Shown in pieces: positions 13,417 through 25,323 of a DNA stretch of 64,000 bases. The stretch is from Myxococcales bacterium (GTDB lineage: Bacteria > Myxococcota_A > UBA9042 > UBA3505), in assembly GCA_963578775.1 (NCBI GenBank), contig CAUZEG010000002.1:9423-73422 (forward strand). The letters are read 5' to 3'. Position 1 is the first letter of the stretch. The number at the start of each line of letters is the position of its first letter. The position numbers and the translations under genes are program-made. Under the pieces are notes generated by a model that did no database searches, was not told where the DNA came from, and was given only the letters and a program-made list of their open reading frames with translations.

Positions 13417-14178
13417 ATGGACAACAAAGAAAAACAATCTGAGACTTCTATGGCTTCCCGTACACGGCGCGACGGGACCACGAAACGAAAGCTTCCGGTC
13501 TTTCCGATCATTATCGCGGCCCTTATTGGGGTGATCGCGGCTCTTATCGTGGGCTTCAGCCTTCGTGGAAGTACCAAGAACATTGAAGTGGCTGACTTGA
13601 CTCGGGATGCGGACAGTTATCTTGGTGAACGCGTAAAGATCCAGGGAACGATCGCTGGCCACTGGACCGAAAAGAACTCTCGGGACATCTTCATTCAGCT
13701 ATCGGGAGAAACCGGCGAAGAGGTCGTATTCCATTACACAAAACCACTGCCGGATCCCTACCAGAAGAATCGTATCGCGATAGCGGAGGGAGTGTTCATC
13801 GACGGGATACGAATTGACCCCAAAAAGGTACAAGACGTCGAAAAGACGGGGCTGTTACTGGCCCAGGTCACCGGTATGCCAGAGGGAGACGCCATTGACC
13901 TGGTCTCCAACCCTACAGCCATCACGGCCTATGGAACATCGGTAACGCTTTCTAACGAGCGGAAGTTGTCCATCCCCAAGGATGCCTATGAGAAGGTCAA
14001 GACATTCACAGGGGGATCGGACACGTCTCAAACGCTGGCCGGTATCAGCTATACCCGCTTCATCGAAGGGCGGCGGCTTACCGTCAAATGCCCCTCCAAA
14101 TATGTTCGGGAAGGTGTGAGCCCGGAACAATACGAAGAGTACAAGGACAAATACCCCGAACACGTGCCCCAGAGTTAG
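13417..14178 (+). CDS. CcmE-like membrane-anchored OB-fold protein, a variant cytochrome c maturation heme chaperone homolog with a C-terminal extension.
   Basis: N-terminal TM helix LPVFPIIIAALIGVIAALIVGF. The segment LRGSTKNIEVADL...GERVKIQGTIAG...IFIQLSGETGEEVVFHYTKPLPDPYQKNRIAIAEGVF is alignable to E. coli CcmE (LRSNIDLF...IRLTGTVMPG...[36 protein letters not shown]). Sits directly upstream of ccmF. The canonical HxxxY is absent. Confidence 0.5.
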   Translation: MDNKEKQSETSMASRTRRDGTTKRKLPVFPIIIAALIGVIAALIVGFSLRGSTKNIEVADLTRDADSYLGERVKIQGTIAGHWTEKNSRDIFIQLSGETGEEVVFHYTKPLPDPYQKNRIAIAEGVFIDGIRIDPKKVQDVEKTGLLLAQVTGMPEGDAIDLVSNPTAITAYGTSVTLSNERKLSIPKDAYEKVKTFTGGSDTSQTLAGISYTRFIEGRRLTVKCPSKYVREGVSPEQYEEYKDKYPEHVPQS

Positions 14179-14189
14179 GACGCTAACCT

Positions 14190-17100
14190 ATGCATGTGTT
14201 TGGACAGGTATTGCTTGGTCTCGGATTTCTGGCTTCTCTGGCCTATGCTGGAACCGCCTTTCTAGGTGCCCGCTTTCGCCGTCAGAACCTCCTCGACGCG
14301 TCACGATACGGTTTGTACGCCCTGGCCGGAATGTTCTGGGGTATATCTCTGCTGCTATCCTACGCCTTTCTCACCCATGACTTTTCCAACACCTACGTTG
14401 CCGCGTACAGCGATCGGGGGATGAGTAATCTGTATCTTCTCTCCGCCTTCTGGGGAGGGGAAAAGGGTGCGCTGTTGCTATGGGTTACCTCCCTGACCAC
14501 ATTTTCGGCGATTTCGATCCACAGCAACCGACATAAGGACCCACGCTGGATTGGTACCACCACAGGGATCCTGCTCCTATGCATCGCCTTCTTTGAGATG
14601 CTGATGGTGTTTGAGTCGAACCCCTTTTCCACCTGGCTTACTTTCGGGGGGCCAGCCGATGGCCAGGGGATGAATCCGGTCCTGCAGAATGTGACGATGA
14701 TGATCCACCCGCCAAGTCTGCTGACGGGATTTATCTGTTTCACGATCCCATTTGCCTACGGATTGGGAGCACTGATCGTTGGTAAGCTCGATACAGAGTG
14801 GATTCGTGTAACCCGTGTCTGGACCATCATCTCGTGGCTATTCCTATCGGTGGGCCTCATCCTGGGTGGCTTATGGGCCTACCAGGAACAGGGTTGGGGC
14901 GGTTACTGGATGTGGGACCCGGTCGAGAACGCCGGATTGATACCATGGTTCACCGCGACCGCATTCTTGCATAGCGTGATGATCCAGGAACGCCGCGGCA
15001 TGTTGAAGCGTTGGAACGCGATCCTGCTTTGCCTCACATTTCTGCTGACGATCTTTGGGACGTTCCTTACCCGAAGTCAGTTGATTGCATCCATCCATGC
15101 CTTCGCGGATAGCAAACTCCCCTACTATTTCCTGTCGTATATGTTGGTCATCGCGACCGTCAGTTTTCTGGCCATCCGAAAACGATGGGACGCGTTGAAG
15201 AGTGAACATCGGATCGAGTCTTTCTGGTCCCGTGAGTCCTTCTTCATCTTAAACAATGTCATGCTGGTTTCCTGTTCGTTCATCGTGATCTACGGAACCC
15301 TGTTCCCGAAGATCAGCGCCTCGCCAGGATTTCGTCGCGTCGTCAACAACACATTCATCGACGGATACAACGTAACTATAGGGCGAATCCTCCCCAATAT
15401 GAGTCAACTGACACAATCCTCCGATCTGGGTCAGGACTTCTTCAACACCGTCATTCCACCCGTAGCGCTATGTCTTCTGTTCCTGTCGGCCGCTGGCCCG
15501 ATCATCGCCTGGCGCCGAGCCACGGTTACAAATTTCCGGAAGAACTTTGTCGCCCCTCTCTTATGGGCAATTATTCCAACGCTGGTAACGATTGGCTTTT
15601 TCGTAAACCGCACCTTTGAACAACTTACCTTCAAAGGCCTGTCCGAATCGGAAGCCTGGACAGCCCTATGGGCGGGGACCGGTCAGCTTGAAGTCTATGT
15701 GTATCTGACCTTTTACCTCTGTTATTTCGTCATCGCTTGCATCATAATGGAGTACATGAGGGCCATCGCCGTTCGTCGCCAGAGCACGGGAGGCTCCAGA
15801 CTCAAACACGCCCTTATACTCACCCTGAAGGCACGCCGGAGATTCGGCGGCTACATTGTGCATCTGGGGATGGTTCTATGTTTCTTCGCCTTTGCCGGAA
15901 CGGCGATGAAAACATCGTTCAAGAATAAGATGTTGCACCCTGGAGGTACCGTCACTCTGCATGACTATCGTGCAACGCTGGCCCGAATGGACTTCGAGTA
16001 TGAATCCGAAGGGAGGTTCCTGGCCACGAAAGCTACCGTAGTGGTCACACAGCGAAACGAACCCTTCAATCGTCGCATCATCCATAGTTTCTCCCGTGCT
16101 CTGGAAGCTAAAGGAATCGATCGGGCCGTCATTCGGGCGAAGGATGGGTTCGCCAAACTCCAGATCTATCTTCCCGATCCAGACCAGAGGCATCGGCTTC
16201 TGGCGGCCGGCCTTATCAGGACGGAATTCGAATCCAATTTTGATGAACTCGAAAAAGACATCCGACCCGATGCCGATCCGCCGGTCTTTGCCCACCGCTA
16301 TCGGTATAAACATGAGAAGGCCCTGGAGCTGGCACGACTACCGGATGGTCGGCCCGCGTATATGTTCTATGTGCGCGAGTTAAAAGCCCGGCTGGCACAG
16401 CTCGAATCCCTCGGCATCAAAGGCCGTGTGGATATGTCGAACCCGGATGTGTTGAACGTCGACTTCGAAACCCTGGAGCATATGCAGCGCTACGAGGCCG
16501 ATGTGATGCCTCTTGCAGAGCACCTTCCAGATTCCTACAGCATTCGTGAAGGGCTTGCCTCATTCCGGCTCCTGATCGCCGACAATGCGGCCAATATCAT
16601 GGAAGGATCTTCGCCGAAGAAGTCCGACACCAAGCTCGGCGATTTGGGCGAAAGCCCTACTCTCCCCACTCTGTTTGCAGCCGCCGAAAAGACACTCGAT
16701 GCGTTGAACCCGAATATTGACTGGGCCACAGGATTCGAGGCAAAAAACGCCCTTGGTATCGACCGGGCCAAACGGCTGAAGAAAACCAGTCAGCTTCTCA
16801 ACCGACTGGAATACCAGGCTCTCATCCTACCCGTCGATCGTTTCGAATCGCAATCCAAGGCCGAGAACCAGGCCTGGACCGAACTGAGCCGTGCGCTCCG
16901 CAACCGTAGTCTCCCATGGATACGTGTCATACTCGTGGGGCCCGGTGCCGAATCCGCGCAGACTCTGCTGGGAAATATGGGGATACGGACCTATATTGCT
17001 CGAACCGCCCAGGAGTTCGAAGCGGAATTACGGGCCGCGACCGTCAACATCATCCCGGTGGAGATCATACCTACAGGCATCGGAAGCGTGATGATCCCCG

Positions 17101-18263
17101 AGGTACGAGTCTACGAGAAGATTGGCTCGTCCCAGAGTGCGGAGACCATGACAACCGAGATCGCAGTGGAGTCCCATCTGCTCTGGGACGTCTATATATC
17201 GATGCGTCCGTCGCCGGATTATCGCGGCCTGAGCATGGACGGCTTCTTGAACCCGCTGGTTTCATTTCTGTGGCTGGGAGCGATCATTATGGTTTTGGGG
17301 GCTTCCATAGCCGTTCTACCCAACTCGGCGGTCATGTTTCTCTGGCGCCGACGAGACGAAGAAAGCACGGCTGGACCAACCCACTCGTCCAGTTCGGGAA
17401 GGAGCCGTATAAGCGTATTACCCTGGTTGGCGATTCTAGCGGTCGGCCTGTTCATGTTCACGCAGCTGGCCTTCGCCAGTCCGGCGGCACAGGATTCAGC
17501 TACACCCACACAACAACTGTCAGCATCCGATCCGGTCGATGTTCCTCCATCGCGGCTGGAGGTGATGTCTGAGTACCTGTTCTGCCCGGATCAACAGGTC
17601 GGGTCCTGGATGGTTCACCCGGACCGGACCTTAAATCGTTGTCCCACGGCGGAAGGGCGTAATGTGCGCCATATCTTGCAGACGATCCTTGACGAAAACC
17701 AGGCCTGGGATGTGCACACGACAAAGGGCCGATTTCTGGTATTGGAAAATCTGATAAAAATCGACCGATCGACCCCCGGCGGCGGTCAGATCGACACCTT
17801 ATTACGAGTTCCCCAGGCAAAGTTCAACAGCATCTGGAACCGTACCAAATGTCTCTGTGGCTGCGCACATATCCTCATGCATTGTGGTGCCGAATGTGGA
17901 CCAGCAGGCCATCGCTGGCGACCACGGTTTCGCCAGATGTTGACGGCCGGCTACACCACCCAGGACGTTCGTAGGGATTATGCAGAATACTATGGGGCGG
18001 ATGCCGATGGCTTTGTGAGCCAGGGTGAGATCGACAAGCACAAAAAGGGGACCGGGCCGCCCATCGCTCGGATCCTGTTATTCCTGGTTGTCGGAGTCGC
18101 TGCTGTGGTGCTGGTGCTCAGCAATCGATTCGCATCCACTTCGAGAAAAAAGAAGTCGAATGCAGCTCTGGCTCCCTTGCCCGGCGATGAGCCAAAAAGC
18201 GAAGGTGAAGAGCTTGGACTCATCGACGACCTTCTCAATGATATTGATGACCCCTTAAGCTGA
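14190..18263 (+). CDS. ccmF: Cytochrome c-type biogenesis protein CcmF (heme lyase, WWD domain). It has a greatly expanded periplasmic region and a fused C-terminal CcmH-like domain plus a TM anchor.
   Basis: WGGYWMWDPVENAGLIPWF (WWD motif). Multi-TM N-terminal half typical of CcmF/NrfE. The C-terminal part, ...RFRQMLTAGYTTQDVRRDYAEYYGADADGFV, then the TM segment ARILLFLVVGVAAVVLVL, resembles CcmH (EGKSxxEIVDYMVARYGDFV + TM). Total 1357 aa versus about 650 for typical CcmF. Confidence 0.75.
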   Translation: MHVFGQVLLGLGFLASLAYAGTAFLGARFRRQNLLDASRYGLYALAGMFWGISLLLSYAFLTHDFSNTYVAAYSDRGMSNLYLLSAFWGGEKGALLLWVTSLTTFSAISIHSNRHKDPRWIGTTTGILLLCIAFFEMLMVFESNPFSTWLTFGGPADGQGMNPVLQNVTMMIHPPSLLTGFICFTIPFAYGLGALIVGKLDTEWIRVTRVWTIISWLFLSVGLILGGLWAYQEQGWGGYWMWDPVENAGLIPWFTATAFLHSVMIQERRGMLKRWNAILLCLTFLLTIFGTFLTRSQLIASIHAFADSKLPYYFLSYMLVIATVSFLAIRKRWDALKSEHRIESFWSRESFFILNNVMLVSCSFIVIYGTLFPKISASPGFRRVVNNTFIDGYNVTIGRILPNMSQLTQSSDLGQDFFNTVIPPVALCLLFLSAAGPIIAWRRATVTNFRKNFVAPLLWAIIPTLVTIGFFVNRTFEQLTFKGLSESEAWTALWAGTGQLEVYVYLTFYLCYFVIACIIMEYMRAIAVRRQSTGGSRLKHALILTLKARRRFGGYIVHLGMVLCFFAFAGTAMKTSFKNKMLHPGGTVTLHDYRATLARMDFEYESEGRFLATKATVVVTQRNEPFNRRIIHSFSRALEAKGIDRAVIRAKDGFAKLQIYLPDPDQRHRLLAAGLIRTEFESNFDELEKDIRPDADPPVFAHRYRYKHEKALELARLPDGRPAYMFYVRELKARLAQLESLGIKGRVDMSNPDVLNVDFETLEHMQRYEADVMPLAEHLPDSYSIREGLASFRLLIADNAANIMEGSSPKKSDTKLGDLGESPTLPTLFAAAEKTLDALNPNIDWATGFEAKNALGIDRAKRLKKTSQLLNRLEYQALILPVDRFESQSKAENQAWTELSRALRNRSLPWIRVILVGPGAESAQTLLGNMGIRTYIARTAQEFEAELRAATVNIIPVEIIPTGIGSVMIPEVRVYEKIGSSQSAETMTTEIAVESHLLWDVYISMRPSPDYRGLSMDGFLNPLVSFLWLGAIIMVLGASIAVLPNSAVMFLWRRRDEESTAGPTHSSSSGRSRISVLPWLAILAVGLFMFTQLAFASPAAQDSATPTQQLSASDPVDVPPSRLEVMSEYLFCPDQQVGSWMVHPDRTLNRCPTAEGRNVRHILQTILDENQAWDVHTTKGRFLVLENLIKIDRSTPGGGQIDTLLRVPQAKFNSIWNRTKCLCGCAHILMHCGAECGPAGHRWRPRFRQMLTAGYTTQDVRRDYAEYYGADADGFVSQGEIDKHKKGTGPPIARILLFLVVGVAAVVLVLSNRFASTSRKKKSNAALAPLPGDEPKSEGEELGLIDDLLNDIDDPLS

Positions 18264-19458
18264 TATTTCGGCTACGCACCGAGACCATCAGGAATAAGAC
18301 GACCAACAGGGCCCATGGAATAGACCCCCGCGGGCCCCGCTTACATCCACCCGAGTCACCGCCAGGCCCCGTTGGCCCGGTCCATGGCGTCTGGTCCAGG
18401 AGTCCTGCCTCGCCGCCATAATGGTACCAGTCGAGGTCGCAGGCCACGGACTCCTCGTCGGTAGACGCACAGGTCGAGCCAGGGCCTCCTAGTTGCTTCA
18501 TAGAGAAGAGCGGAGTGTCGTCGGAACGCACAACGTCGAATGGACCGTTCAACCTCAACACACCATTCAATTGGCAGACATATACATAGGCCCCCACGGC
18601 CTGGAGGCACGTCCAATCCACTGTCGTGCCTTGTTGAATGGAGAAGGCGCTGCCGTCGTCCTGAACCAGAGCACTCTTCCCATCCGCGATGAGCACAAGA
18701 TTCGCCCCCAATTCGACCGGTCCCATAAGATTCTCGAAGACCTCGGTGGATGGGAGCCATTCATCATTTTCGGCCAACTCCGGATCCGAGCGTACCCGGA
18801 CTAGAATTCGTCCTTCAGTCGTACTCGCGACCAACCAGGCCGTACCGTCCTCTTCAATATGGCGTACACTCAAATAGCTCCAATCTCCGCCCAGGCTAGA
18901 ACTCGACGCAGACCAGCCCTCACTCGGCAGGCCCGTAGCGGGCAACGAGGCCTGCCATACCTGGGGTGTCGGTCGAGCCCCGGCTACCACGACCACTCCA
19001 GGGGCCCCGGCTTGAAGCACCAATGTGTCGGGTGCAAAGCCCAGCGCATCCGCATCACCCGGGAATATAGTCTCGATTCGTACCAGCCAATCCGAGCCAA
19101 AGCTGACGAGTGCACCCGAGTTCTCGTCTCCTCCAAGCACATAAAACCGGCTCTGCACCCAACCAACGTCTCGGGGATAACCAAGCTCTGCGGGCATCTC
19201 GACCTCGTCAAAGGTACAACCGCCGTCGCTAGACGCGCGGACAACGCCCCCACCCAACGACACCAGCTCAAGCCCATTCGACGACACTGCGAATTGCGCC
19301 ATTTCATAACCGCCCCAACGAGACGGACAACCATATCGGTAACTGCCATCCGCATTCGCATGCGCCAGGCCAATATTCAGCCGAATGAGATGGGGATAGG
19401 ACTCGTCCACAACCTGGTTGGCACGGCTATCCTCATTCGAATCCAACAAGATTTCCAA
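18235..19458 (-). CDS. BNR/Asp-box repeat beta-propeller protein with a C-terminal Cys + hydrophobic + Arg tail (MYXO-CTERM-like sorting signal). The true N-terminus probably lies upstream of the track's TTG start, to about 19575.
   Basis: Asp-box motifs SSDGGCTF, EEDGTAW and QDDGSAF. C-terminal ...GGDSGGCKRGPRGSIPWALLVVLFLMVSVRSR. The in-frame upstream segment encodes a signal-peptide-like LRRRALNAILGTIFCLWTTFVFAHGAAPAP with no ATG/GTG/TTG. Confidence 0.55.
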   Translation of the reverse strand: MEILLDSNEDSRANQVVDESYPHLIRLNIGLAHANADGSYRYGCPSRWGGYEMAQFAVSSNGLELVSLGGGVVRASSDGGCTFDEVEMPAELGYPRDVGWVQSRFYVLGGDENSGALVSFGSDWLVRIETIFPGDADALGFAPDTLVLQAGAPGVVVVAGARPTPQVWQASLPATGLPSEGWSASSSSLGGDWSYLSVRHIEEDGTAWLVASTTEGRILVRVRSDPELAENDEWLPSTEVFENLMGPVELGANLVLIADGKSALVQDDGSAFSIQQGTTVDWTCLQAVGAYVYVCQLNGVLRLNGPFDVVRSDDTPLFSMKQLGGPGSTCASTDEESVACDLDWYHYGGEAGLLDQTPWTGPTGPGGDSGGCKRGPRGSIPWALLVVLFLMVSVRSRNISLRGHQYH

Positions 19459-19529
19459 TGGGGCGGGTGCTGCACCATGGGCAAAGACGAATGTCGTCCA
19501 AAGACAGAAAATCGTACCAAGAATGGCGT

Positions 19530-21173
19530 TCAGGGCTCGTCTCCGAAGGCAAGCCCGCAGGACTCGAGATCCGAATTACAGGTTCCATCCAGTATATATG
19601 GCTTCATGCATTGGTAGAACCCCTCGTATTCCTCACTGCACGTTGCAAATACGCAGGTCTGTGGATTGTCACAGGTGGCAAAACAGGCGGACAGTTCTCC
19701 CAGCTCCGTGGGGCAAACCGGTGCTGCGCATGTTGCCATCGGCAAGGTCAGGCATTGTGCACAGTCCAGGCCGGAGTTGATGACGCATCCAAGGAAACAG
19801 GTGGAATCCTCACAACTGACAATACAACTATCCGCGCCCGTACAGACGGCCAGGTCCTCGTAAAACGGAAGGGCAACCGCCAGGTAGGCCAGGCACATCT
19901 CATCCCGGGTTCCATCGCCCCAGGAGACCAGCTTGGGCTCCTGCTGCTCCCCATTGACGACCGGCTGATTCTCTACACTATTGTCATAGGTACATGACAA
20001 ACGAACCACATCGTTGAGTTCGGTATCGAGATACGAGTCGTCAGGAAATGAATAGGCCTGCTGCCAGTTGAAATCCCAATCCGGGATATTAACCAGGCAA
20101 TGGCTTTGGTCGCCTCGAAGAAGATCGATACGAATTTCACTTCCCAGGGTGTGCATATGCGGGGTCACCGCGATAATGCGTCCGCCAGCTGGTACGGGGA
20201 AGTCTCGAACCTCCTCCCAGCTTGCTTCATGGGGCGGAATCGAGATGCCCAGATGAGGATACGGTAGGATCTCGACCAGATATTCAGGGGTCGTTCCGCT
20301 GGGCAGGGTCCAAAAACCAACCTGGGTCCGATCCGCCGGAGCCGGGCCTTCAAAGTTCAACACATTGAAATGCATCTGCATGACAATGCGGGATCCGGCC
20401 GGAATGCGAATGGCCATATTGTCAGGAAATACCTTTGGGACTGAGCCCGGAACCCAGCCACCAAGTGTCTCACCTGTACCTACGATGGGACTTCCAAAAC
20501 AGGTATAACCCGCACCTTCTTCCGCGGCATCCAGCTGTTCCATGGCAGCAATATCGTAGTCGGGAACAAGATATAGCAATACATGGTGCACCAGCTCGGC
20601 TTGGTCCGGAAAGACCCAGGAACTGGTCAAGAACGTATCTTCTTCAAAGGTATACGGCAGCGGTAGACAGCGATAATCGTCCGGTTTGTTTACATCGGGA
20701 GTGTAATCTACGCCCGCATCCAACATGAGGTCCGGCTCCCCAGTCGGTGCCGTGGGGCTGATGTCCGGGGCCACATAGTCGTCTGGGTTTCCCTCGAGCG
20801 TACCATTCTCCGCCCAGGTCGCCAGAGCATTGAGGTCTTCATCCGACAGGCCACGATGATCCGCGAGCGGATAGCAATCGTCGGCGGGCATCCATGGCGG
20901 CATTCTACCGGCCGAAGCGCTAGCACTCACAAGGTTCGCCATATCTCGGACTACTTCATAACTCGTCAGAGCGAACGGACCGATGCTGCCTTCCTGGTGA
21001 CAAGTCGTGCAATTTTTTTCCATAAGGGCGCGAATCGCCCCGTGGTAGGTGGGTCCGGTTGCCGTTGCATCGGTGGTTGGCTCCTCGGTTGAGGACTTCG
21101 TGCACGACGTCAATGTCGAGAGCATCGCTATCAGAACGATCACGACAGATAAAGCATGTGTTTTCTGATTCAT
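19530..21173 (-). CDS. Lipoprotein fusing an N-terminal c-type cytochrome domain (CxxCH) to a PHM/DBH-like type-2 copper monooxygenase domain, with a C-terminal Cys-rich repeat tail.
   Basis: Lipobox LSTLTSC. Heme motif NCTTCHQEG. CuH-like VHHVLLY and MQMHF. CuM-like VTPHMHTLG and DEMCLAYL, compared with PHM HHMLLFGC / HTHxLGK / EMC. C-terminal CxxxC-rich tail. Confidence 0.6.
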   Translation of the reverse strand: MNQKTHALSVVIVLIAMLSTLTSCTKSSTEEPTTDATATGPTYHGAIRALMEKNCTTCHQEGSIGPFALTSYEVVRDMANLVSASASAGRMPPWMPADDCYPLADHRGLSDEDLNALATWAENGTLEGNPDDYVAPDISPTAPTGEPDLMLDAGVDYTPDVNKPDDYRCLPLPYTFEEDTFLTSSWVFPDQAELVHHVLLYLVPDYDIAAMEQLDAAEEGAGYTCFGSPIVGTGETLGGWVPGSVPKVFPDNMAIRIPAGSRIVMQMHFNVLNFEGPAPADRTQVGFWTLPSGTTPEYLVEILPYPHLGISIPPHEASWEEVRDFPVPAGGRIIAVTPHMHTLGSEIRIDLLRGDQSHCLVNIPDWDFNWQQAYSFPDDSYLDTELNDVVRLSCTYDNSVENQPVVNGEQQEPKLVSWGDGTRDEMCLAYLAVALPFYEDLAVCTGADSCIVSCEDSTCFLGCVINSGLDCAQCLTLPMATCAAPVCPTELGELSACFATCDNPQTCVFATCSEEYEGFYQCMKPYILDGTCNSDLESCGLAFGDEP

Positions 21174-22575: not shown

Positions 22576-22753
22576 CGTGGAGACTCTGGCCTAGCAATGT
22601 TATGCAACGTGCGCAAGATCAGGCTCCGAAACTCCGGCGGAGTTGACCGGGAAATGGATGACTCTGTGATTGGGGATTGGATCGCAAAACAAAGAAATGC
22701 CGGGCATCGTGGATGCCCGGCATTTCTGGTCTCACAGGCCTGAATCGGCGTGA

Positions 22754-25171
22754 TTAATTGCAGCTCGTGGAGCAGCCCTCGGCCGGAAGGCCAAGACCAT
22801 CCACTACATTGCCACATGAACCCGAATCACAGGTTCCGGTGGCTGCACAATCGGCAACACAACGGAAATTCTGGTTCAGTTGGGTACCGGTGTTCGAGCA
22901 GACATATCCAGATTGGCAGTCTGTATGAACTTCACAGGGTATGCAGGTGCTATCCAGGGGAAGGCACTTGTAGAGCGAGGCTGACAGGGCCGGGTCTTCA
23001 CGAGGAATCGCCACTTGAGCAAGACAGCCAGTTCCCGGAACATCCGAACAACTGGTAGCATCCGCCGGATCACAGAAAGTGCTGCAGACACCGCCAGCAG
23101 CGGTCTGTTCACATAACAGGCTCTTGCACTCGTAGTACGCTTCACAGGATTGGCCGGGAAGCTTGGAGGCCTGGGCACCATTGCTGTCCAGGTTGCTCAT
23201 GCACAGGAACTCCACTGTCGCCGCAACATCGGGGTTGCTGGCAATAGCGGTAGCGTAGCAGGTCTCGGAGGCCGCGTCACAGACACTCGTATCACCAACA
23301 CCCGCGGTCGCTGTCCCACAGTCCGACAAGCTCGAGGCCGGATCTTCTGGCCGACAGATGGAGACGTACAGGTCGTCTTTGACGTCCGCGCTTCCATTGG
23401 AAGAGAAACGAATCGCCTGGCATACACCGCTGGCATTGGCGGCTTCGCCATTCAGCATCTCGACATCGACCGGGCAATCGGCAGTGCTACTACATACGGA
23501 GAAGCAGCTTGGTACGGTCTCACCGTCACCACTCGTGTAGAAGTTCAAGCACATGCCATTAACACACCAGTTGCCTGTGTCCGCACCACATTTGTCGCCA
23601 TGGTCACCCGTGACGGCCGCATTCTCGGAAGAGGTGCAATAGAACTTGAATTCCGCACCACCGGCCGCAGCATCTACCTGCGTCGGCGTACAGAACTCGC
23701 CAGGCACGGTGCAGTCAGAATCTCCACCACACTCGGTCAAATCACCTTCGTGCTTAATGGGCTGACAGACATTCAAGGACATGAATGCATCACCGGCATC
23801 ACCGTAGAACTCGTTGTCGTTCAAATCGATGGGGAAGGTCTCCACACCACAGATCTGTTTGCCAGCGGCGCAATCGGTATCACTCAAACAATGCGTGCTG
23901 CACATACCGTTGGTACACCAGATCGGATTCTCACAGACGTCGCCGGGGAAATCATCATTGGAGTTGAAGTCACAGGCTGCGCCCACCGGAACGGAATTGT
24001 CGGGCTTACGCAGACAGATGTGATCCCAATCGGCCAATTCCGGGGTATCTTCGCCATTGTAGAAGGTGCGGCAGAAGAAGTTCGGGTCGACACAATCGTC
24101 GTTGATGTCGCAGTTCTTACCAAAGCAGGTTCCGGCTCGAAGTTCGGGGGGACCCGAGGAAAGCAGGAAGTCCTGCTCACAGAACCATGGTGAACAATCG
24201 GTAGCGTTCTCACAGGACGCCGCCGCGTTGTTGTCGCAAGAACCATCCGTGCAACCCACACCTTCCGGGAAACAGAGGCTATCATCGGAACCACAGGCTG
24301 CCGAGCAACCAATTCCGATGCCGAAGCAGAGTCCCTCTGTACAGTAGGCCAGGTCGGCGTTGTAGAAGATCGCAGGATTGTGCGGGTTGTTCTCACAGAA
24401 CTCGGATGCACCCTTACCACCCGCAATCGCCGTTCCACAATAGAAGTCCGTGATTCCAAGGATGGTGTGAATCTTACAAGCCTCGCCCACCGGACAATCG
24501 GAGGATACAGTACAAGATTTGAAATCGGTACCTGCAGTACACTGGGTGAAGTCTTGTTGCCCAGCCTGCGGATTCGTCACACGTACACATTTGTAGGCAT
24601 CGCCATAGGGGCCTGCCGGGGCCGCGCCAGCGCAAAGGCTGTCGCCATCTTCCACGCCATCCGGCACCGCGTCGCCATTAATATTGTTTACCGCGTCATC
24701 CGCTGCACTCATGGTGCATTGCTTGAGACAGACCGGCTCGCCAAATACCACATTGCAAGAGCCTTCGGCACATTGCTGGTCGAGGCATTGGAGGTAGGTT
24801 AACAGCGCATTCTGATCACTGAAATCTTCGGGTTCCTTATCTGCACATTCGGGTGATACGAAACACTCTTCACCGTATGCAACGGTTCCGACGATATCCT
24901 GCTCGCAGCTTCCCTGGGCGGTACAGGTAGCTCCCGGGCCACAAAGACCACAGATTCCACCGCAGCCGTCTGGACCGCAGGCTTTTCCATCACATTGGGA
25001 CTCGCACGTCGGTGTGTCTGTTTGCACATCTTCGGAAACATCCGGCGTGCCGTCATCCGTGCCTACCACGTCAGAAGTAACATCTTCTTCCGGTTTGGTG
25101 TCTCCACCGCAACCAGGAGCGACAATAAATGTCAGAAAACAAATAGCGAAAAGAAAACAACTGCGCTTCAT
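22754..25171 (-). CDS. Large extremely cysteine-rich secreted lipoprotein with tandem myxo-type Cys-rich repeats.
   Basis: Probable start is the internal ATG at 25171, with GGAGG 7 nt upstream, giving MKRSCFLFAICFLTFIVAPGCGG (lipobox). More than 100 Cys in recurring xDCxxGxxC / CxxGxC modules. Ends ...GCSTSCN. The ORF track extends it to 25216. Confidence 0.7.
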   Translation of the reverse strand: MKRSCFLFAICFLTFIVAPGCGGDTKPEEDVTSDVVGTDDGTPDVSEDVQTDTPTCESQCDGKACGPDGCGGICGLCGPGATCTAQGSCEQDIVGTVAYGEECFVSPECADKEPEDFSDQNALLTYLQCLDQQCAEGSCNVVFGEPVCLKQCTMSAADDAVNNINGDAVPDGVEDGDSLCAGAAPAGPYGDAYKCVRVTNPQAGQQDFTQCTAGTDFKSCTVSSDCPVGEACKIHTILGITDFYCGTAIAGGKGASEFCENNPHNPAIFYNADLAYCTEGLCFGIGIGCSAACGSDDSLCFPEGVGCTDGSCDNNAAASCENATDCSPWFCEQDFLLSSGPPELRAGTCFGKNCDINDDCVDPNFFCRTFYNGEDTPELADWDHICLRKPDNSVPVGAACDFNSNDDFPGDVCENPIWCTNGMCSTHCLSDTDCAAGKQICGVETFPIDLNDNEFYGDAGDAFMSLNVCQPIKHEGDLTECGGDSDCTVPGEFCTPTQVDAAAGGAEFKFYCTSSENAAVTGDHGDKCGADTGNWCVNGMCLNFYTSGDGETVPSCFSVCSSTADCPVDVEMLNGEAANASGVCQAIRFSSNGSADVKDDLYVSICRPEDPASSLSDCGTATAGVGDTSVCDAASETCYATAIASNPDVAATVEFLCMSNLDSNGAQASKLPGQSCEAYYECKSLLCEQTAAGGVCSTFCDPADATSCSDVPGTGCLAQVAIPREDPALSASLYKCLPLDSTCIPCEVHTDCQSGYVCSNTGTQLNQNFRCVADCAATGTCDSGSCGNVVDGLGLPAEGCSTSCN

Positions 25172-25323
25172 TGGAAGTACCTCCAAACGTTGCCTATATA
25201 GCAATATTCGTTGCACGGGAAAGTTACCCCTCGACTGAGGGAGCGCGCATCGTAGGCAGCTAGAACGTCCGTGTCAAGCCTCAATATAAGATTTTTTTCA
25301 ACCGGTGAATGGTATGGAGTCCG

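Follow-up and report, generated by a model that had tools for sequence, protein, structure and literature searches.

A gene on the minus strand of the 64,000-nt stretch of DNA analysed here (the window) encodes a 547-aa lipoprotein that joins, in this order, a lipobox signal peptide, a cytochrome c domain, a two-copper core like that of PHM and DBH, and a tail with 16 cysteines. By homology the protein belongs to the copper type II monooxygenase (PHM/DBH/TBM) superfamily. The reading that we prefer, with a probability of about 0.6, is that of an envelope enzyme, held by a lipid anchor, whose fused cytochrome c feeds a PHM-type CuH/CuM pair for O2 activation and substrate hydroxylation. It builds on homology, fold, ligand conservation, the lipobox, family size and gene neighbourhood, each of which was observed directly.

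Domain architecture and predicted metal sites

The ORF has exactly the coordinates given in the first-pass annotation and contains every motif quoted there, namely LSTLTS-C23, NCTTCH, VHHVLLY, MQMHF, VTPHMHTLG and DEMCLAYL. A GAGG-like Shine-Dalgarno sequence precedes the ATG by 6-7 nt, and no second copy of the gene was found within the window. Conservation was assessed in an alignment of 49 homologues with 36-74% identity to the 547-aa protein. Residues C54, C57, H58, M90, H195, H196, H267, H338, H340 and M425 are invariant in this alignment, and since the ligands are invariant over such a range the motifs are not chance matches. The signal peptide ends in ...MLSTLTS-C23, in agreement with the lipobox pattern [LVI][ASTVI][GAS]C, and position -1 is A, G or S across the homologues. 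The linker behind the lipid-anchored Cys is short and poorly ordered here, and variable, often long and acidic, in relatives. The features are collected in Table 1.

Table 1. Positions of the gene, its domains and metal-site residues, and of neighbouring genes in the window
Feature	Coordinates	Strand	Remarks
Whole gene, 547-aa lipoprotein	19530..21173	-	ATG start; stop codon 19530-19532
Signal peptide and lipobox, residues 1-23 (L-T-S-C23)	21105..21173	-	From sequence; Cys in 47/49 homologues
Low-complexity tether, residues 24-40	21054..21104	-	pLDDT <50 at residues 25-30
Class-I-like (PccH-like) c-type cytochrome domain, residues about 41-135	20769..21053	-	
CxxCH haem c motif, C54-T-T-C57-H58	21000..21014	-	Invariant, 49/49
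Met90 (GRMPPW), candidate distal axial haem ligand	20904..20906	-	M90, P91 and W93 invariant
PHM-like N-terminal beta-sandwich (CuH domain), residues about 145-295	20289..20741	-	PHM alignment, fold matches
CuH ligands H195/H196; H267	20586-20591; 20373-20375	-	Invariant
PHM-like C-terminal beta-sandwich (CuM domain), residues about 296-437	19863..20288	-	PF03712, 35.3 bits
CuM ligands H338-M-H340; M425	20154-20162; 19899-19901	-	Invariant
C-terminal helical domain with 16 conserved Cys, residues 438-547	19533..19862	-	Helices, pLDDT 79-98
Partner gene, secreted beta-propeller	18235..19545 (listed as 18235-19458)	-	Probable operon partner
CcmE-like gene; CcmF-fusion gene	13417-14178; 14190-18263	+	Context; haem c maturation

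Pfam cytochrome models scored below threshold for the 547-aa protein itself (Cytochrome_CBB3, 22.0 against 27; Cytochrom_C, 18.4 against 21.3). Among the relatives, 41 of the 49 matched Cytochrome_CBB3 at E<=0.01, the best at 5.4e-6, and a profile of residues 36-135 matched almost exclusively solved c-type cytochromes, about 40 in the PDB. The top matches were PccH (4RLR, 1.5e-4) and CcoP (1.8e-4), and further ones were ScyA, cytochrome cA, c6, c552 and cytochrome c subunits of bc1. Because the relatives and the family profile match cytochromes in this way, the sub-threshold scores indicate a divergent member in which the motif itself is intact. The invariant Met of GRMPPW (M90) aligned onto the MPSW of CcoP, whose Met we take to be an axial haem ligand. 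A cytochrome c fold was recovered for the domain, with PccH as the closest structural match at about 15% identity. Profile and motif together identify the N-terminal domain as a divergent cytochrome c of class I (PccH-like, His/Met), in which haem c would be held covalently at C54 and C57. The prerequisites for haem c are present in the form of a lipoprotein export signal and of CcmE and CcmF genes within the window. In Geobacter, PccH carries electrons in the periplasm with a single haem, and haems of its type can have a low potential, -35 mV (PMC13591261).

For the copper core, two Pfam models had been proposed as a check in the first-pass annotation, and one of them was recovered directly: Cu2_monoox_C (PF03712) scored 35.3 bits against a cutoff of 23 and was matched in all 49 relatives. 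PF01082 was not reported for the 547-aa protein at E<=1, yet it was found in 24 of the 49 family members at E<=0.01. Likewise, a single-sequence search of the PDB with the 547-aa protein returned nothing relevant, and only the family profile reached PHM (E about 8e-12) and human DBH (3e-6). In the profile alignment VHH falls on PHM V106-H107-H108 and QxH on Q170-x-H172 at the CuH site, while at the CuM site HxH falls on H242-x-H244 and DEMC on D312-E313-M314-C315. Thus H195, H196 and H267 correspond to PHM H107, H108 and H172, and H338, H340 and M425 to H242, H244 and M314; the PHM numbering was verified through Y79 and C81 within the same alignment. The correspondence anticipated for these six ligands was therefore borne out, and neither of the two refuting outcomes looked for, a lack of any Cu2_monooxygen HMM match and misaligned ligands, was found.

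Agreement with PHM extends beyond the ligands. The residues equivalent to PHM Y79 and Q170 are Y166 (47/49) and Q265 (49/49), and two PHM disulfides have exact counterparts, C81-C126 in C168-C224 and C293-C315 in C393-C426. Fold comparison returned the two-domain beta-sandwich (PHM/PNGase F-like), with PHM as the best structural and sequence relative, although the identity to PHM in the fold matches is only 17-18%. This kinship, and a Y or F at the position of PHM Y318 in 45 of the 49 homologues, would suit a true bacterial peptidylglycine alpha-hydroxylating enzyme that starts the C-terminal amidation of secreted peptides. We consider such a function very unlikely. The position of R240, which in PHM makes the salt bridge to the glycine carboxylate, is T, A, L, V or S in the 49 homologues and that of N316 is L or I, no PAL-like lyase gene occurs among the recurrent neighbours of 80 loci, and the identity is low. 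As both anchors are replaced, chemistry and substrate are not transferable from PHM; the absence of the peptidyl-glycine anchors together with that of a linked PAL-like gene led us to reject PHM orthology and to keep superfamily membership. The substrate is predicted to be something other than a glycine-extended peptide bound in the PHM manner.

The Cys-rich tail described in the first-pass annotation is present, with 16 cysteines in residues 443-538, and the last 110 residues are predicted with high confidence (pLDDT 79-98) as a bundle of short helices. These cysteines are conserved in 44-45 of the 49 homologues. Four relatives are without the tail, and a tail-less subgroup of 430-480 aa was seen in the exhaustive HMMER search described below. 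No Pfam family was found for the tail, and in a PDB profile search its resemblance to twin-CX9C proteins (Mdm35, NDUFA8) was non-significant (E 0.18-0.4). An HMM of the tail matched only the C-termini of family members and no other type of protein, which marks the tail as a family-specific module.

In total the protein has 25 cysteines: one for the lipid anchor, two for the haem and 22 others. C99, from the cytochrome domain, and C358, from the CuM domain, are each present in 47 of the 49 homologues and are missing from the same two sequences. This co-loss, which may represent a single evolutionary event, suggests a putative C99-C358 inter-domain disulfide that would fix the haem domain onto the catalytic core.

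Family distribution and gene neighbourhood

A word-indexed search of 5.8 billion proteins yielded 545 homologues, mostly full length (540-620 aa) and mostly from metagenome-assembled genomes of Myxococcota. An exhaustive HMMER scan over 1.84 billion 50%-identity representatives returned 4,303 proteins at E<=1e-30, 12,647 at E<=1e-10 and 22,783 at E<=1e-3. With one genome per GTDB species, 523 loci were obtained. The 80 of these that were listed are almost all from Myxococcota (Myxococcales, Polyangiaceae, Nannocystaceae, Sandaracinus, Bradymonadia and Lujinxingiaceae), and among them two family copies per genome are common. The nearest relative (74% identity) belongs to a Tara Oceans MAG of Myxococcales from the Red Sea. 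Source databases label the homologues as 'hypothetical', 'mono/diheme cytochrome c family protein' or 'monooxygenase', NCBIfam has no model for the family, and no report of a bacterial cytochrome c-PHM fusion was found in the full-text literature, with few subscription journals covered. In bacteria the family cannot be called rare, yet it is unstudied. Bacterial members of this fold had been described as rare and poorly characterised; the first half of that statement does not survive the counts given above (about 4,300 clusters at E<=1e-30, and 523 loci when each species is represented by one genome), while the second stands, as no characterised member or paper was found.

A gene for a secreted beta-propeller was the only specific recurrent neighbour in the 80 loci. 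It lies directly downstream, and its 5' end overlaps the monooxygenase stop codon in another frame. A homologue is directly adjacent in 17 of the 80 loci; of the 63 loci whose flanks are long enough to judge, 15 have it (about 24%). We regard it as the probable operon partner of the monooxygenase gene. Upstream, a strong terminator-like hairpin at 22727-22693, ahead of the ugd-like gene, makes it possible that ugd, the monooxygenase gene and the partner form one transcription unit.

The reading frame of the partner is open through a signal peptide, and as this region has no ATG, GTG or TTG the start codon is uncertain; the partner of the 74% relative has GTG/TTG within its signal-peptide region. 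The signal peptide here ends in ...VFA, followed by HGAAPAP, and the family pattern is ...A followed by HG(P/A)APA; cleavage at this point would leave a mature N-terminal His. Several Cys and a W-x-H-(F/Y)-G-x-E-x-G motif are conserved in the partner family, as is the MYXO-CTERM-like pattern of the C-terminus (GGCKRGPRGSIPWALLVVLFLMVSVRSR in the window), with Gly-Cys (GGC), a hydrophobic stretch and an R-rich end. One partner homologue was named a MYXO-CTERM protein by JGI. No MYXO-CTERM or other NCBIfam model matched the partner at E<=0.1, nor was there a Pfam match, and word-indexed searches found only 6 and 4 homologues. The AF2 model is a beta-propeller (pLDDT 79.5) that matches generic propellers only.

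The mature N-terminal His and the conserved His353 of the partner possibly resemble a histidine-brace-like pair. Such a copper link, and the several paralogues per genome, could be taken to mean that the 547-aa protein is a non-catalytic copper- or haem-binding envelope protein for metal buffering or storage, or a pseudo-enzyme. That would leave the conservation of catalytic-site residues beyond the ligands (Q265 and Y166 at the frequencies given above, and DEMC) and the selection maintained over more than 4,000 clusters to be accounted for, and we hold it to be extremely unlikely.

The first-pass annotation had also drawn attention to ccm genes within 1.3 kb. The distance is correct, the end of the CcmF-fusion gene being 1.27 kb from the monooxygenase gene, and the two genes are convergent on opposite strands with another gene between them. 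The 74% relative has the same order of ribF, aroE, a Cys-rich lipoprotein gene, ugd, the monooxygenase gene, the partner, ccmF, ccmE and murC; the whole region is syntenic there, so that nothing specific can be read from the adjacency. In four more distant homologues the surrounding genes are completely different, none of the loci of P0006, P0038, P0069 and P0077 has ccm genes nearby, and clustering of all flanking ORFs of the 80 loci gave no recurrent ccm neighbour. Based on the contexts of five homologues and on these clustered flanks, ccm linkage was rejected. A function as part of the neighbouring ccm locus, to which the short distance and the shared arrangement in the 74% relative had pointed, is effectively refuted by the opposite orientation, by the regional synteny and by the lack of a recurrent ccm gene. 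The Ccm system is required in trans for haem maturation. The earlier reading was thus largely right about the identity of the domains, and it erred on rarity and on the weight given to the ccm adjacency.

Other neighbours were less informative. An OmpR-type regulator/kinase pair adjoins the family gene in about 7-11 of the 80 loci, and none is found in the window. A copper-sensing two-component system was considered and rejected: the NCBIfam matches of the pair are generic and below cutoff (the best is RstAB-like), with heavy-metal models far below, so no copper-specific inference can be drawn. Ser/Thr kinases and ECF sigma factors also recur near the loci; since Myxococcota have many of both and their positions vary, they were set aside as background. 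On the whole, little of the genomic context is conserved, and no pathway can be guessed from it.

Proposed mechanism and alternatives

In the mechanism that we propose, the enzyme would be tethered by its lipid anchor in an oxidising envelope, facing the periplasm or at the cell surface. CuH would be held by H195, H196 and H267 and CuM by H338, H340 and M425, with CuM as the site of O2 binding and substrate C-H hydroxylation. The N-terminal monohaem cytochrome c (C54xxC57H58, Met90) would pass single electrons, drawn ultimately from the respiratory chain or from periplasmic cytochromes, to the copper pair. The adjacent beta-propeller, where it occurs (about a quarter of loci, the present one among them), and the 16-Cys helical tail would probably serve in docking, substrate presentation or metal delivery. 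Occupancy of the haem and copper sites, the direction of electron flow, monooxygenase chemistry and cellular location are all predictions of this model.

The donor role of the cytochrome is argued from its constant fusion in the family and from the redox-input modules added in relatives. The cytochrome region is present in all complete proteins among the best 150 HMMER matches, and larger relatives bear extra cytochrome c domains, AhpC-TSA/Redoxin/Thioredoxin_8 modules or EF-hands. The putative C99-C358 staple joining the domains and the precedent of the copper nitrite reductases discussed below argue in the same direction. The presence of a fused cytochrome c also argues for a donor other than ascorbate.

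The same domain could instead serve O2, NO or redox sensing, regulation or structure, with the copper core being active with a diffusible small reductant. This would fit PccH, the closest structural match, being an unusual low-potential cytochrome, and the putative staple being on the CuM domain and not on CuH, where electrons from ascorbate enter in PHM; the OmpR-type two-component systems beside some members hint at regulated expression. A cytochrome fusion that is near-universal among thousands of clusters is harder to reconcile with it, extra cytochrome c or thioredoxin-like modules suit electron supply better than sensing, and ascorbate is, to our knowledge, not a typical metabolite of the bacterial periplasm. 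We therefore judge a diffusible reductant to be unlikely.

The peroxiredoxin-like (AhpC-TSA/Redoxin) domains fused to some relatives raise another option, in which electrons from cytochrome c would reach O2 or H2O2 at the coppers without organic hydroxylation, in an oxidase or in peroxide/ROS handling. No substrate-related neighbours were found and the PHM substrate anchors are missing, as might be expected of such an activity. On the other hand, the full CuH/CuM ligand set is strictly kept, Met included, as are the residues matching Y79 and Q170, which coupled monooxygenases typically have, and the members of the PHM/DBH fold known to us are all C-H hydroxylases. An oxidase or peroxide role therefore appears improbable.

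Our preferred reading of a cytochrome c-fed hydroxylase can be extended, more tentatively. The family may constitute a large class of respiratory-chain-driven envelope C-H hydroxylases in which a fused cytochrome c, possibly stapled by a disulfide, takes the place of ascorbate as donor to a non-coupled two-copper site. Their substrate would be a new one, other than peptidylglycine, met at the cell surface of predatory Myxococcota. At some of the loci the enzyme might work with the MYXO-CTERM-like beta-propeller, whose N-terminal His may bind copper as a chaperone or as a second redox site. We put this forward as a possibility with the odds against it.

Relation to known copper monooxygenases and haem donors

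PHM and DBH are the textbook non-coupled binuclear copper monooxygenases, and the animal forms take their electrons from ascorbate. The entry of electrons at CuH and their passage to CuM across about 11 A of solvent have long been debated, and almost all of the work has been done on animal enzymes with a diffusible reductant. If our reading is true, a tethered and spectroscopically visible haem donor would make the electron-transfer step directly measurable, for example by flash or stopped-flow methods, in a family that lends itself to expression in bacteria with a Ccm system, as the glycosylated animal enzymes do not. It would also mean that PHM/DBH chemistry is widespread in bacteria and runs on the respiratory chain instead of ascorbate, and a hunt for a new class of substrates could begin, in a family with thousands of sequences and no assigned function. 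What is new is that one family combines a PHM/DBH core with a lipid anchor, a disulfide-rich tail and, as the probable donor, a tethered c-type haem. The MYXO-CTERM-like beta-propeller gene that overlaps the 3' end, adjacent in about 24% of the loci judged (15/63), is new as well.

The protein differs from each of the systems to which it can be compared. PHM (PDB 1PHM, 1SDW, 1OPM), at 17-18% identity, is ascorbate-dependent, whereas the protein described here is bacterial, lipid-anchored and fused to a cytochrome c; it has the 16-Cys helical tail in addition and lacks the PAL partner and the R240 and N316 residues. Among DBH, tyramine beta-monooxygenase and MOXD1 (PDB 4ZEL), the N-terminal domain of DBH is a DOMON beta-sandwich, where we find a helical CxxCH cytochrome, and the C-terminus of DBH is a dimerisation domain, where we find a disulfide-rich helical module.

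Cytochrome c-tethered three-domain copper nitrite reductases follow a like design, in which a periplasmic copper enzyme carries its cognate donor, a class I cytochrome c, as a covalent fusion (PMC13324648). These enzymes offer an analogy only, being unrelated cupredoxin T1/T2 trimers with the cytochrome at the C-terminus, which carry out nitrite reduction and not O2 activation. Unlike the fused domain seen here, PccH of Geobacter sulfurreducens (PDB 4RLR) is soluble and stands alone; the identity is about 15%. Donation of single electrons by a haem domain to a mononuclear copper oxygenase outside the cytoplasm is familiar from the cytochrome domain of cellobiose dehydrogenase and the CYBDOM proteins, which feed LPMOs. 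In those systems the haem is b-type, the folds bear no relation to ours and the donor is a protein distinct from the oxygenase, but the concept is one that they share with the fused protein described here.

Possible cysteine pairing and diversity of the monooxygenase family

Both Cys99, in the cytochrome domain of the monooxygenase, and Cys358, in its CuM domain, are missing in P0049 and P0061, the sole homologues in which either residue is absent. This joint loss suggests an inter-domain disulfide between the two. Larger relatives (P0228, P0230, P0247 and P0248) carry the cytochrome c-PHM unit together with fused extra modules, namely additional cytochrome c domains, AhpC-TSA/Redoxin/Thioredoxin_8 domains or EF-hands. 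Many Myxococcota encode two or more diverged family paralogues per genome, with 35-45% identity to each other's class (locus pairs L008/L071, L009/L054, L019/L074, L024/L067 and L077/L080, among others). Only one family copy was found in the 64-kb window.

Gene neighbourhood and transcription

The strong terminator-like hairpin lies between the gene for the Cys-rich lipoprotein and the ugd-like gene. Since it is located upstream of the latter, the ugd-like, monooxygenase and beta-propeller partner genes may be co-transcribed as one unit. The partner gene converges with that of the CcmF fusion, their 3' ends overlapping by 29 bp. CcmF domains span only approximately the first 630 residues of the fusion; the remaining ~700 residues gave no Pfam match, and within them lie a Cys-rich stretch and, at the C-terminus, a TM segment. 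The 74% relative keeps the long fusion (1,349 aa), the Cys-rich lipoprotein in unchanged position (807-812 aa), which had no Pfam match in the window, and the 544-aa ORF, adjoining murC.

Features of the window around the monooxygenase gene
Feature	Position	Strand	Remarks
ORF, 336 aa	8726-9736	-	no Pfam match
ORF, 544 aa	11584-13218	-	no Pfam match
CcmF fusion	14190-18263	+	1,357 aa, unusually long
Partner gene	18235-19545	-	signal-peptide stretch overlaps monooxygenase stop codon in a different frame
Mature partner protein	18238-19479	-	beta-propeller with MYXO-CTERM-like tail
Cys358 codon	20098-20100	-	CuM domain
Cys99 codon	20875-20877	-	cytochrome domain
Terminator-like hairpin	22693-22727	-	16-bp stem and T-run
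Cys-rich lipoprotein	22754-25216	-	820 aa, predicted, extremely Cys-rich

An OmpR-type response regulator and HAMP-HisKA kinase pair adjoins the monooxygenase gene in approximately 7-11 of the 80 listed loci (L010, L026, L049, L054, L082, L084 and L086). At L049 the order on a single strand is regulator, kinase, monooxygenase, propeller. NCBIfam matches of these pairs were generic and below cutoff, and no such pair was found within the window.

Start site and mature form of the partner protein

The partner has a conserved signal peptide (RRRALNAILGTIFCLWTTFVFA|HGAAPAP), which is missing from the 403-aa product called by JGI and NCBI. No ATG, GTG or TTG was found in the signal-peptide stretch in the window, only CTG and ATT, whereas GTG/TTG is present there in the 74% relative. 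This may reflect initiation at a non-canonical codon, translational coupling or an error in the called start.

The predicted mature N-terminus is a histidine, within a conserved AHG(P/A)APA. His353 is nearly invariant and falls inside a W-x-H-(F/Y)-G-x-E-x-G motif. That the partner binds copper is pure speculation, and the N-terminal histidine and His353 together recall histidine-brace copper sites.
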